Positions 441 through 39,214 of a stretch of 39,214 bases of DNA are shown in pieces. Location of the stretch: IMG/VR virus record IMGVR_UViG_2541047122_000029; one strand, written 5' to 3'. The notes beneath the pieces were generated by a model. That model did no database searches. It saw only the letters and a program-made list of their open reading frames with translations, and was not told the DNA's origin. This DNA is from a virus. Its lineage: Duplodnaviria; Heunggongvirae; Uroviricota; Caudoviricetes. The translations under genes and the position numbers were made by a program. Position 1 is the stretch's first letter. Every line of letters starts with the position of its first letter.

Positions 441-2531
441 ATGTATGTCATTGCAAAAGAACTGATTGGCGCGCCCGGAATGCCTGCTACAACAAAAGGT
501 ATTCGCCAGGCATTACAACGTTACGTACAAGGGAAAAGCTGTTGTTCCCGTCGTCGCTCAGGCTCTAAAGCAACTGAATACAGCATCGACTGTTTACCTG
601 AAGTGACGCAGCAGGCATTACGTGAACGCTACGCCCTGCAACTGATGACGCAAAAAGTCGATGAATCACCGGCTCCGGTGGTGACAAAGGCCAGACGCTC
701 GCCTGCCGTGGTTGATGCGGTGGAGGCATATCGCGGATCACCACAACTGATGGTCGAACGCCTTAATGCCCTGACTGAAAACCAGCGCCAGGTGGCTGAT
801 GCACGAATCGCGATCGTCAGCGAAGTTCTGAAAGTCGCGCAACAACCTGGTTTCAGCTGTGCGAAGGCTATCCGGTTTATCGTTGACAACCTGGCACGTT
901 CGCAGCTGGACGAGCGCATTGTGGCAATGGTTGAGACGGCGAACGCCAAAAAGGGAAACAGCCGCGCGTTAAGTGAAATCACGCTGAAACGCTGGATTGC
1001 GGCCTTTAACAAGGCGCAGAACGCCGCTGAACGCCTGCTTTTACTGGCACCGGGTAAGCGCCAGGAAATAAAAGCCGAAGATATTAACTGGCTGCCCGAA
1101 TTTCTGGCGCAGTATCGCCAGTCAAACGGCCGACCAATGACCGAGGCTTACGAGGATTTTGTCGCTGAATGGCAGCACCGGCACGCTGATGAGCCTTATA
1201 TGCTCGATATCATGCCGTCTTATGACACCATTCGCCGCGCAATGAAGAAACTGCCGGAAGTGGTGAAACAAAAAGGCCGGGTGACCGGCAGTGAATACCG
1301 CCAGCTTGAGGGATTCACGCGCCGCGACTGGTCAAAAATGCCGGTGAATTATGTCTGGATTGGTGACGGTCACGGCATGAAGCTGAAATGCGCACACCCG
1401 GTTCACGGTCGGCCATTTGCACCGGAAGTGACCTTTGTTATCGACGGTGGCACGCGCTTTGTGGTGGGCTGGAGCCTTGACCTGGCTGAAAATGTTTTCG
1501 CCGTAGCCGGTGCCATACAGCACGGCATTCGCCATCACGGCAAACCGTTTCTGTATTACTCGGATAACGGCTCCGGGGAAACCGCCGACATCCTGGATAA
1601 GGAGGTTGTGGGGATACTGCCGCGACTGGGGATTAATCACCCGACCGGGATTGCCGGTAACCCGCAGGGACGGGGCATTATCGAACGGCTTAACCGCACA
1701 TTACCGATGCGCATAGCCCGTAAATACCGCACCTATTTCGGGAAAGGTGCAGATCGCGAGACGTTACGCAAAACCAACCGCGATTTACGCTCGGCATTTA
1801 CCGCCCTGCAACAGGGCAAACGGCTGAACGCCCGGCAACAGTCAGCGATGCGTGATTTACCGTCCTGGGCTGAACTGATTGATGCCATTCGTGATGGTGT
1901 TGAGTGGTACAACAACCGGCCGCACGATGAATTACCGGTGAAGCCGAACGGCAAGCATTACAGCCCGGCGGAGTTCAGAAAAAAACGCCTGGCGGAAGAG
2001 GACACGGAAATTGAATGGCTGTCCGATGTTGAGCTGCGGGATATGTTCCGGCCGATGGTGGAACGCCCTGTAAGACGCTGTGAAATACGCTGGCTGAATA
2101 ATATTTACTACGCGCCCGAGCTGCGTGACGAGCATGGCCGTAAGGTGCTTATCAGCTATGACATTCATGATGCCGAACGAATTACCGTACGTCGCCTGGA
2201 TGGCAGCGTGATTTGCGAGGCGGTATGGGACGGTAATAAACGCGAAGCCTTCCCGGTTAGCGCGGAATACTACAAACAGCAGCAACGCCTTAAAGGCATG
2301 CGTAAACGCGCAGAGGAAAAAATCCGTGATGCCGAGGATGAGGTTGTCAACGTGCTGGAGCACAAGCCGCAGGAGCCCTGGCTGGAAAACATATACCGCC
2401 CTGTGGGTAATACGGTGACCGTTCAGCAACCGGTCGCTGACGATGAACCTGATGAAGAATACGAGCGTAATTTCCAGCGGGGATTGCAGTTGCTGGAAGC
2501 GAAATTAAAAGAAAATGACCCGCTGGCCTGA
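441..2531 (+). CDS. A: Mu-type DDE transposase A
   Basis: 696 aa, similar in length and sequence to MuA as I recall it (central catalytic region, acidic C-terminus ...DDEPDEEYERNF); ATG 441 directly follows ner stop. Confidence 0.93.
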   Translation: MYVIAKELIGAPGMPATTKGIRQALQRYVQGKSCCSRRRSGSKATEYSIDCLPEVTQQALRERYALQLMTQKVDESPAPVVTKARRSPAVVDAVEAYRGSPQLMVERLNALTENQRQVADARIAIVSEVLKVAQQPGFSCAKAIRFIVDNLARSQLDERIVAMVETANAKKGNSRALSEITLKRWIAAFNKAQNAAERLLLLAPGKRQEIKAEDINWLPEFLAQYRQSNGRPMTEAYEDFVAEWQHRHADEPYMLDIMPSYDTIRRAMKKLPEVVKQKGRVTGSEYRQLEGFTRRDWSKMPVNYVWIGDGHGMKLKCAHPVHGRPFAPEVTFVIDGGTRFVVGWSLDLAENVFAVAGAIQHGIRHHGKPFLYYSDNGSGETADILDKEVVGILPRLGINHPTGIAGNPQGRGIIERLNRTLPMRIARKYRTYFGKGADRETLRKTNRDLRSAFTALQQGKRLNARQQSAMRDLPSWAELIDAIRDGVEWYNNRPHDELPVKPNGKHYSPAEFRKKRLAEEDTEIEWLSDVELRDMFRPMVERPVRRCEIRWLNNIYYAPELRDEHGRKVLISYDIHDAERITVRRLDGSVICEAVWDGNKREAFPVSAEYYKQQQRLKGMRKRAEEKIRDAEDEVVNVLEHKPQEPWLENIYRPVGNTVTVQQPVADDEPDEEYERNFQRGLQLLEAKLKENDPLA

Positions 2532-36845: not shown

Positions 36846-36876
36846 CCGGCAGGTTTCCCTGCCGGGTGAATTTGTT
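36846..36876 (+). terminator. Rho-independent terminator after the small two-gene cassette
   Basis: CCGGCAGG (36846-36853) / CCTGCCGG (36858-36865), loop TTTC, then GTGAATTTGTT. Confidence 0.7.
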
Positions 36877-37045
36877 AATGCACGTTTTGTGTACTTTCCC
36901 TCCGGGGAGAACAGGCAGGACATATCAGCATCCTGAAACAGGACGCATTTTGGGGTTTGTATGTCTTGCCATTTTGAGATCGAGAACGGCGATAGATGAG
37001 CTGTAAGGGAGTCTTACAGGCAGGGCAAACAGGCTCTTTATCCAT
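36875..37045 (-). CDS. Possible small zinc-ribbon protein, divergent from com/mom (low confidence)
   Basis: Minus-strand 56-aa ORF MDKEPVCPACKTPLQ...CPACSPRRE with two CPAC pairs; AAGGAG 9 nt upstream of ATG at 37045; track ORF 36875-37069 starts 8 codons earlier. Confidence 0.3.
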   Translation of the reverse strand: MDKEPVCPACKTPLQLIYRRSRSQNGKTYKPQNASCFRMLICPACSPRRESTQNVH

Positions 37046-37139
37046 GATAAAGATCTCCTTTTTATGCATCTCTGCTTTACAGGAGACCGGGGAATATCAT
37101 AGGATACGACACGAGCTCGAAGTAAAGCATTGATGCGAA

Positions 37140-37410
37140 TTTGTTCCAGGTCCAGATAGCTGTAACTATCTGGACCTCCCTTTATGTAGTATCCTGTTGA
37201 TTTGAAACATACTACATATACGCGCGATCCTACCTTCACTGTATAAAAAGTCAATAAAATGATCATTTTATGATCGTTTTCACCACCTAAGTCTTCGTTT
37301 TCTTTAAGTAAATAATCACCGCCCTGAATCATTGTTGATGACTTTTCAATCTATTTGTTGTATCAATTAAACAAATCGAATCGATCGTTTTTGTCGATCG
37401 ATTGCATGAG
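37140..37410. promoter_or_regulatory. com/mom upstream control region (palindromes plus GATC cluster, likely Dam-methylation-sensitive promoter)
   Basis: AT-rich. 12-bp inverted repeat AGGTCCAGATAG (37148-37159) / CTATCTGGACCT (37166-37177); 9-bp inverted repeat ATGTAGTAT (37184-37192) / ATACTACAT (37209-37217); GATC at 37226, 37261, 37272, 37383, 37396. Confidence 0.6.
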
Positions 37411-37446
37411 AAAGGCATCAACAACAAAGCAGGAGGTTATGCGGCC

Positions 37447-37647
37447 ATGTATCGAAACATACGGTGCCGACACTGCAATAAGCTACTGGCACGGGCCAGT
37501 TTCAGTTATCTGGAAGTAAAATGTCCGCGCTGTAAAACCCTCAATCAAATCACATCTCCGAGCGCCACAGAGCACCCCACATACACAAGGAAATCCTGTC
37601 GTGGGGAACAGAAAGCAAGTCACATCCCGTATCATCAGCACGCCTGA
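37447..37647 (+). CDS. com: Com-like zinc-finger translational activator of mom
   Basis: ATG 37447 (RBS AGGAGG) inside track ORF 37402-37647; [13 protein letters not shown]...[12 protein letters not shown] matches Mu Com (IRCKNCNKLLFKA...IRCPRCKRH) as I recall it; overlaps the next gene. Confidence 0.75.
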
Positions 37648-38338
37648 ACTTATTCGCTATAACGACAATATCGTTGGTTATGGCTCCCGTGAGTTGCGGG
37701 TTGAGACAATAAGTTGCTGGCTGGCCAGACTGGTCATCGTCAATAAACATTACAGCCACCGTTTCGTAAATAACTCCTACCTTCATCTGGGCATATTTTC
37801 AGAACGGGAGCTGGTTGGCGTAATGCAATGGGGCTATGCCCTTAATCCAAACAGTGGTGCACGCGTCGTAACGGGCACGCGGAACCGTGAATATATGGAG
37901 CTTAACCGGTTATGGCTGCATGACTGTATGCCGAGAAACTCCGAATCAAGGGCAATCAGTTACGCGCTCAAGCTAATCAGGCAGCTTTATCCGCAGGTAC
38001 AGTGGGTTCAGTCGTTTGCAGATGAGCGTTGTGGCTGTCTTGGTGTCGTGTATCAGGCAAGCAATTTTGATTATGTAGGCAGCCACGAATCAACATTCTA
38101 TGAACTTGATGGCGAGTGGTATCACGAGATTTGCAGGAATGCCATTAAACGAGGCGGACAGCGAGGTGAACATCTGAGGGCTAATATCGACAGAGCCAGT
38201 GTTCATAAATTCCGTCAGTTTCGTTACATCCGGTTTCTGAACAAGAGGGCCAGAAAACGCCTCAACACAAAGCTATTCAAAGTCCAGCCTTACCCAAAAC
38301 CACAAACAGTTAAAACTGGTTTAAAAGAGAGTGAGTGA
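37601..38338 (+). CDS. mom: Mom-like DNA modification protein (anti-restriction)
   Basis: 245-aa ORF overlapping the end of com; ...[16 protein letters not shown]...[23 protein letters not shown] resembles Mu Mom as I recall it. Start uncertain (GTG 37601 in track). Confidence 0.75.
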
Positions 38339-38375
38339 ACGCTTAAAAACTCATTCTAAAACCCAAAAGAAAAGC

Positions 38376-38416
38376 GCCGATTTAGTATCAAATAAGTTGC
38401 GTATCGGCGTTTTTCA
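38376..38416 (+). terminator. Terminator-like hairpin downstream of mom
   Basis: CGCCGAT (38376-38382) / ATCGGCG (38403-38409) with a large 20-nt loop, then TTTTTCAG. Confidence 0.35.
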
Positions 38417-38449
38417 GCGGTATCAAATGAAATGCAAATCGGTATCAAA
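38384..38449. repeat. Three direct copies of RGTATCAAA in the region after mom (candidate end-binding sites; prophage right terminus not resolved)
   Basis: AGTATCAAA 38384-38392, GGTATCAAA 38419-38427, GGTATCAAA 38441-38449. Confidence 0.3.
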
Positions 38450-38920
38450 AAAATCGCCGCGCTATAGGCTTTTGCTGAGTTACAAAGGCGAATTCTGGAT
38501 AATCAACAGACAGGGAGTGCGCAATCTGATGCAGCATTGCTCTGGAGTTTTTGGAACTCTTACTCTGCAGATGAACTGGTCGATGACTTAGTCATTCGCT
38601 GTGGTCTGGAAAGCGCCGTTGAAATCGTCCTTTTTGCCCTTCAACTCAAATATAAACCAGTAAAAGGCGCAGTAACCACCATCATTCCACCTAATCACGA
38701 AGCAGAATCGCTACCTAGTTAGCATCAACGTCTATGTCATCATCTTTCACTCGCTTCAGAAGATGAGTGGCAACGCTGTGTAGATAAAGTACTCACCGCC
38801 ATTCCGACGCTATCCCCCGCACGGCAACCTTTTGCGGCGTTACTGCTCCCTGAACGCCCGGATATCGCCCATGCTATAGATCTACGCTATGCAGACCAAA
38901 ACGTCCCGGCGATGACCTGG

Positions 38921-39214
38921 TGAACCGCCCCGGGTTTCCTGGAGAGTGTTTTATCTGTGAACTCAGGCTGCCAGATCATCGTTTCCGATGGAAGCATAAT
39001 AAGCTTTTTCTGCTTCTGCCGGAGGAGTATGGCCCAGCCTTCCCAGCAATCGTCGATTGTTATACCAGTCCACCCACGTTAGTGTGGCCAGTTCCACTTC
39101 TGCACGGTTTTTCCAGCTCTTACGGTGTATTACCTCCGCTTTGTAAAGACCATTGATGCTCTCAGCCATCGCGTTGTCATACGAGTCGCCTGTACTCCCT
39201 GTTGATGCCAGTAA
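38921..39214 (-). mobile_element. IS3-family insertion sequence, partial (continues past window end)
   Basis: Terminal sequence TGAACCGCCCCGGGTTTCCTGGAGAGTG from 38921; minus-strand transposase 3' end lies 42 bp inside it. Confidence 0.8.
38963..39214 (-). CDS. IS3-family transposase OrfB, C-terminal fragment (5' part outside window)
   Basis: Minus-strand frame open to the window edge: ...GDSYDNAMAESINGLYKAEVIHRKSW..., matching the DDE-integrase C-terminal block of IS3-family OrfB; stop at 38963-38965. Confidence 0.8.
   Translation of the reverse strand, partial: LLASTGSTGDSYDNAMAESINGLYKAEVIHRKSWKNRAEVELATLTWVDWYNNRRLLGRLGHTPPAEAEKAYYASIGNDDLAA

Follow-up and report, generated by a model that had tools for sequence, protein, structure and literature searches.

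Transposable phages related to Mu carry their right end behind the mom gene. In Mu, the last ~100 bp after mom form this end (attR), which contains three repeated sites (R1-R3), and the phage transposes into random targets. The sites of Mu are tightly spaced at the right end, with a long gap at the left end. According to a 2021 survey, the target duplication is 5 bp for Mu and 6 bp for B3 (PMC8705779). The survey also states that every Mu-like or B3-like element described before the TA-TA prophages of Leptospira had TG-CA ends (PMC8705779). The closest described prophage is Sp18 of E. coli O157:H7 Sakai, which has been described as intact and packaged (PMC2669165) and whose copies occupy strain-specific sites (PMC7430833). 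Shiga-toxin-producing E. coli commonly carry transposable prophages of the Sp18 type. Two further systems are relevant to the locus described here. IS629/IS1203 belongs to the IS3 family, and its sister copies show an orfA-orfB transposase with a programmed frameshift and a 3-bp target duplication. In E. coli K-12, the yehF/yehH (molR) region, which follows metG and precedes yehI, encodes proteins of the WGR plus DUF4132 type.

The window, i.e., the whole stretch of 39,214 nucleotides analysed here, contains elements of all three systems. The phage part has the termini of Sp18 (TGTAACCAGGTG... and ...ATCGCCGCGCTATA) and its com-mom right arm; prophages of this type, like Sp18, insert at random sites and are flanked by a 4-bp repeat (TAAA for Sp18). 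Sp18 is inserted in sorM, whereas the prophage in the window is inserted in a WGR/DUF4132 pseudogene, and identity to Sp18 in the mom-to-end region is ~97%, compared with 99.95% for the copy in O157:H7 strain Z1813. With high confidence, we read the stretch behind mom as the right end of this known Mu-like prophage of E. coli O157, then 454 bases of a dead host gene and finally an insertion sequence (IS). The interval is the scar of a double insertion into this dead gene. An Sp18-type transposable prophage of ~39,247 bp transposed between nt 473 and 474 of the WGR/DUF4132 gene next to metG. The 454 bp of host gene run on in frame until an independent IS629/IS1203 insertion after nt 927, where the first bases of the IS, TGA, close the host frame. 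The TAG codon between the two insertions is an older TGG to TAG mutation. This reading fixes the exact limits of three abutting elements for annotation, and it implies that neither insertion inactivated a working gene. The features are collected in Table 1.

Table 1. Features around the right end of the prophage, in window coordinates.
Feature	Position	Strand	Description
com	~37447-37647		Upstream of mom
mom	37601-38338	+	ORF; last prophage gene; stop codon TGA at 38336-38338
Hairpin and T-run	38369-38415	+	GAAAAGCGCCGAT, 21-nt loop, ATCGGCGTTTTTC; innermost repeat within the loop
Right-end module (attR) of the Sp18-type Mu-like prophage	38374-38466	+	Final prophage base 38466 (...ATCGCCGCGCTATA)
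Repeat AGTATCAAA	38384-38392	+	Putative transposase-binding site R3; starts 75 nt from the terminus, read inward
Repeat GGTATCAAA	38419-38427	+	Putative transposase-binding site R2; starts 40 nt from the terminus and 22 nt from R1
Repeat GGTATCAAA	38441-38449	+	Putative transposase-binding site R1; starts 18 nt from the terminus
GGCT	38467-38470	+	Predicted right copy of the 4-bp target duplication, from eight of eight relatives and the empty site ...GGCAGCAGGCTTTTGC
Host gene fragment	38467-38920	+	nt 474-927 of a 3.8-kb WGR/DUF4132 gene directly downstream of metG; pseudogene in the O157 lineage
TAG, codon 243	38720-38722	+	TGG (Trp) to TAG by G to A at 38721; TGG in intact alleles
IS629/IS1203 (IS3 family)	38921-39214	-	Terminal-repeat end near the transposase C-terminus; element runs off the window
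OrfB C-terminus	38963-39169	-	ORF

Several features mark the element as a transposable phage: genes for an A transposase and a B-type ATPase at the left, com and mom at the right, and copies at many unrelated sites. Near the left end of related copies, a gene annotated as 'Mu transposase C-terminal domain-containing protein' precedes one annotated as 'AAA family ATPase'. The A protein of the window (441-2531) aligns end to end with MuA with 22% identity (E = 6e-11), and the phage is therefore only distantly related to Mu. Among the phage transposases of the collection, those of Yersinia phage vB_YpM_5 (79%), a Klebsiella phage (57%), and Haemophilus phage SuMu (44%) come closest. At the other end, the mom product of related prophages is annotated as 'Mom family adenine methylcarbamoylation protein' (WP_000528257.1) and its neighbour as 'Com family'. 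The region between the invertase and com also holds a 2-kb DUF6645 gene, a DUF1378 gene, and a DUF826 gene; Mu is not known to have genes at this position. Two overlapping ORFs of 64 and 135 aa on the minus strand (36875-37332), between the DUF826 gene and com, correspond to a gene annotated as 'frameshifted' in related prophages.

The right boundary of the prophage is at position 38466. When 5426 complete E. coli genomes were searched with window positions 38300-38925, 1778 of them matched only from 38466 onward, with 458 of 459 bases identical across 38466-38924. The matched sequence belongs to a gene whose product is annotated as a DUF4132 or WGR protein. The sole mismatch, at 38922, is inside the IS, and all 454 host bases agree. 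The right end of the prophage is found elsewhere in 226 genomes. The matches listed for these genomes all extend to 38466 (query base 367) and go no more than 11 bases beyond it, and the independent insertions among them all retain the terminal A. With window positions 38100-38480 as the query, the mom-proximal part was found in 232 of the complete E. coli genomes, at 284 places beside many different genes. Nine right ends were read directly. All of them finish with ...GGTATCAAAAAAATCGCCGCGCTATA and then diverge, and the terminus GCGCTATA is identical beside the nine different flanks. Since these ends are the same up to the terminus and different thereafter, 38466 is the last base of the prophage. 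The A at this position is the same in phage and host by chance, which is why the host match seems to begin one base early and why this window by itself leaves the breakpoint uncertain by one base. The independent insertions and the empty sites decide the matter. An earlier note on this DNA had correctly looked for the prophage end between mom and an interrupted ORF. It had held that the terminus could not be called without the left end; the independent insertions and empty sites place it nonetheless. The exact prophage-host junction is absent from the 5426 complete E. coli genomes, from species-representative genomes, and from metagenome contigs.

The extent of the prophage follows from its nearest sequenced copy, which is inserted in puuB of strain Z1813. 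Window positions 1-38466 match this copy from nt 782 on with only 19 mismatches and no gaps. Because the match starts at nt 782, no more than the first 781 bp of the 39,247-bp element are missing from the window; this portion comprises the left end and the repressor gene. The left prophage end thus lies outside the window, as had been noted before. The left junction of the window's own insertion should lie 781 bp upstream of the window and is predicted to read ...CTGGCAGCAGGCT, then TGTAACC... Before the start of the prophage, the left flank is expected to read ...GAAAACTGGCAGCAGGCT, and metG should be located ~0.6 kb further upstream.

Mu-like insertions are also seen inside Stx1a and Stx2c phages (L002 4200-4330 and L023). 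In these copies, only 21% of window positions 37400-38925 matched. The DNA upstream of the ~93-bp end module is unrelated to the 3' end of mom, which indicates that the right arm of this prophage family is mosaic.

Three direct repeats with the consensus RGTATCAAA are found in the right-end module. This motif has five matches in the whole window, compared with 0.43 expected (an enrichment of more than 10-fold), and none of 100 shuffled sequences reached five. Three of the five matches are clustered within 66 bp at the right end, and the likeness of the repeats extends to 16 nt, GTATCAAA(N6)GC. The motif is arranged symmetrically at both prophage ends. The left end, recovered from relatives, begins with TGTAACCAGGTGAATCATTTGATACC. 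Read inward, TTTGATACY starts 18, 113, and 165 nt from the left tip and 18, 40, and 75 nt from the right tip. At both ends, 17 nt separate the tip from the outermost copy, and the copies are inverted between the ends. These are matching terminal repeats of the kind that the earlier note had proposed to seek at the left end. Furthermore, variants of the end module in two Stx phages have six substitutions, none of which falls in the three 9-mers.

The three repeats are most likely the sites at which the A transposase binds the right end. This putative assignment is based on the equal 17-nt tip gap, the inverted copies between the ends, and the Mu-like spacing, which is tight at the right (22 nt between R1 and R2) and long at the left (~95 nt between L1 and L2). 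The sequence of the sites, however, is unrelated to the Mu consensus. In the last ~93 bp of the prophage, the A transposase would bind the three RGTATCAAA(N6)GC copies, all in the same orientation at the right-tip distances given above, and would be positioned to cleave after ...CTATA-3'. The repeats lie in the 3' untranslated region of mom and one of them sits within the loop of a hairpin, so that the repeats and the hairpin might instead regulate mom from its 3' side or terminate its transcription, or the repeats might have arisen by chance. This is very improbable. Three inverted copies of the motif, with an identical tip gap, stand at the opposite, left end of the prophage, and the motifs are unchanged in variants in which the DNA before the module shows no relation to the mom end. 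Chance would give only 0.43 matches per window.

Apart from the transposase sites, the module may serve mom itself. The hairpin has arms formed by a 13-nt inverted repeat (38369-38381 and 38403-38415, 92% complementary), after which the T-run follows. The predicted fold of the RNA from 38336 to 38430 has a free energy of -23.8 kcal/mol (z = -3.6), and one of 200 shuffled sequences folds equally well. A consensus terminator scan misses the hairpin because the 21-nt loop exceeds the 8-nt loop limit of the scan; the same scan found no promoter. The hairpin falls inside the conserved ~93-bp end module, which persists in variants whose upstream DNA differs. Besides its place in the end module, this hairpin would probably have a second role, namely that of terminator of mom transcription. 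The Rfam scan of 37300-39214 returned only a chance-level snoRNA match (E = 0.33), and ARAGORN found no tRNA in the window. In the prophage copy of F7508, RefSeq annotates a 'tRNA-OTHER' on the minus strand (L007 19322-19402).

The way in which this prophage type inserts differs from that of Mu. Both junctions are available for eight related insertions, and all eight carry a 4-bp target duplication: GGTA, ATAA, AGAG, CGTT, TTCT, CGCA, TAAA, and CATC. These are eight different targets. The comparison of duplications and termini covered window positions 38463-38470, L003 (1659-1669 and 40906-40913), L007, and the pairs L008/L009, L010/L011, L012/L013, L019/L020, L022/L023, and L002/L006. As an empty-site check of one insertion, the puuB site was rebuilt with a single GGTA and compared with uninterrupted genomes, and 180 of 180 positions matched. 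Duplications of 4 bp are already annotated in two GenBank entries, LC727895 and LC727881. All nine copies read have TA-3' as their right terminus, instead of the Mu-type CA-3'. The left end is TG in the copies read, except in strain M3, where it is TA. This strain, with an insertion in flgL (L013), begins with TATAACC instead of TGTAACC and has TA at both termini. Its left-end module carries several further substitutions.

A canonical Mu-type element would have its last base at 38465, one before the end given above, and would be flanked by the 5-bp duplication AGGCT. The window alone permits this end, since the A at 38466 is present in phage and host; Mu duplications are 5 bp (PMC8705779), and two of the eight related insertions are also compatible with 5 bp. 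This reading is nevertheless highly improbable. In six of the eight insertions, the fifth base differs between the flanks, whereas 4 bp match in every case, and the puuB reconstruction, the two annotated GenBank entries, and the terminal A kept in all independent insertions listed also speak against it. An end at 38466 also places the outermost motif 18 nt from both termini. Models with a 5-bp duplication and either end shifted by one base were rejected, as they fit two of the eight insertions only. The search for a 5-bp target-site duplication that had been suggested as a check would have failed, as this prophage type makes 4-bp duplications. Because the left junction lies outside the window, the duplication of the window's own insertion (GGCT) is a prediction.

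We consider it likely that Sp18-type prophages depart from the Mu-type rules in two respects, namely in cleavage after TA-3' at the right end (at both ends in M3) and in a 4-bp stagger. No description of the ends of Sp18-type prophages or of their 4-bp duplication was found in the literature. All components of the locus are known kinds of element. The 4-bp duplication and the TA-3' terminus are its only mildly surprising point. If the departure is real, these prophages provide a natural variant for studying how the transpososome of the Mu family sets the cleavage site and the stagger. Delimiting such prophages by TG...CA ends and 5-bp repeats misplaces their ends.

The sequence between the prophage and the IS belongs to the host. 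In genomes without the inserts, the gene order is metG, a 3810-nt WGR/DUF4132 gene ('internal stop'), a WGR gene, a DUF4132 fragment, and yehI. In the full-length allele, Pfam detects WGR at aa 6-69 (E = 1e-19) and DUF4132 near the C-terminus (E = 7e-52). The fragment in the window alone (codons 159-309) lies between these two domains, and no Pfam family matched it. Intact alleles of 3798 nt are present in the non-O157 strains 118UI and Z1002. The open frame that had been called from 38537, an ORF of 61 aa on the plus strand with a TTG start (38537-38722), ends with the TAG; the frame then reopens and ends with TGA at 38921-38923, the first three bases of the IS. The TTG is not a genuine start because the frame is open back to the junction at 38467. 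The frame of the fragment is continuous with the annotated start of the gene, and 38537 and 38720 are both in frame.

The ORF at 38537-38920, which the earlier note had left undecided between phage and host, is host and not phage, as it is the middle of the WGR/DUF4132 gene next to metG. That it is phage-borne DNA (a cargo gene or packaged variable-end DNA) instead of chromosome in its native place can be dismissed, since, although the frame directly follows the last phage gene and Mu-type virions carry host DNA at their right end, the same sequence stands beside metG in 1778 genomes, nearly all without an adjoining prophage, related prophages at other sites do not have it, and it is in frame and collinear with the 3.8-kb host gene. 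The locus has the position and the protein type of the K-12 region, but O157-type genomes hold an extra 3.8-kb paralogue beside metG, and it is this gene that received the insertions. The K-12 gene yehF was considered as an orthologue and rejected, as it aligns only distantly with the fragment in the window; the distant alignment indicates that the O157-type gene is a paralogue that is missing beside metG in K-12.

The stop codon in the fragment is older than both insertions. The TAG is present in the insert-free allele L001, and O157-type alleles that were inspected and have neither insert carry it as well, which dates the stop before the prophage and the IS. Window positions 38560-38900 are matched at 100% by five sampled genomes, among 329 at 99% or more. 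Every host base from 38467 to 38920 is identical to O157-type alleles without inserts, which answers the earlier suggestion to compare an IS-free allele. We infer that the gene was inactive before either insertion took place. As both insertions lie in an already inactive gene, they were probably neutral. The hairpin, the three repeats, and the ORF with its TAG are all at the coordinates first reported for them, and the earlier interpretation is partly right. The TAG is in frame and has no relation to the IS, since it occurs in alleles without either insert. The frame does run into the TGA of the IS, but two insertions interrupt the gene, that of the prophage at 38466/38467 and that of the IS at 38920/38921.

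The IS is a copy of IS629/IS1203 with one end within the window. All 294 bases from 38921 to 39214 are identical to an annotated IS1203 copy, the characteristic terminal inverted repeat TGAACCGCCCCGGG... is present at 38921, and the C-terminus of the transposase reads inward from this end. A sister IS1203 copy is flanked by a 3-bp duplication, CTT. For the copy in the window, the far end is predicted to read ...GGTTCA followed by TGGTTAAGACTGG, with TGG as the 3-bp duplication. The insertion at nt 927 of the gene is absent from the 5426 complete E. coli genomes. Since neither this junction nor that of the prophage occurs in these genomes, the two insertion sites can serve as strain markers. 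In other O157-type strains, independent IS1203 insertions are found in the same pseudogene at nt 687, 1074, and 1413 (among L004 3309, L005 3648, and L018 ~1191). Judged from the reported match spans, further copies are probably located at ~nt 1097, 1273, and 1356. The repeated insertions may reflect a regional hot spot or the mere tolerance of a dead gene. The matches of these IS1203 copies share the same orientation, which is possibly an artefact of how the search joined matches.
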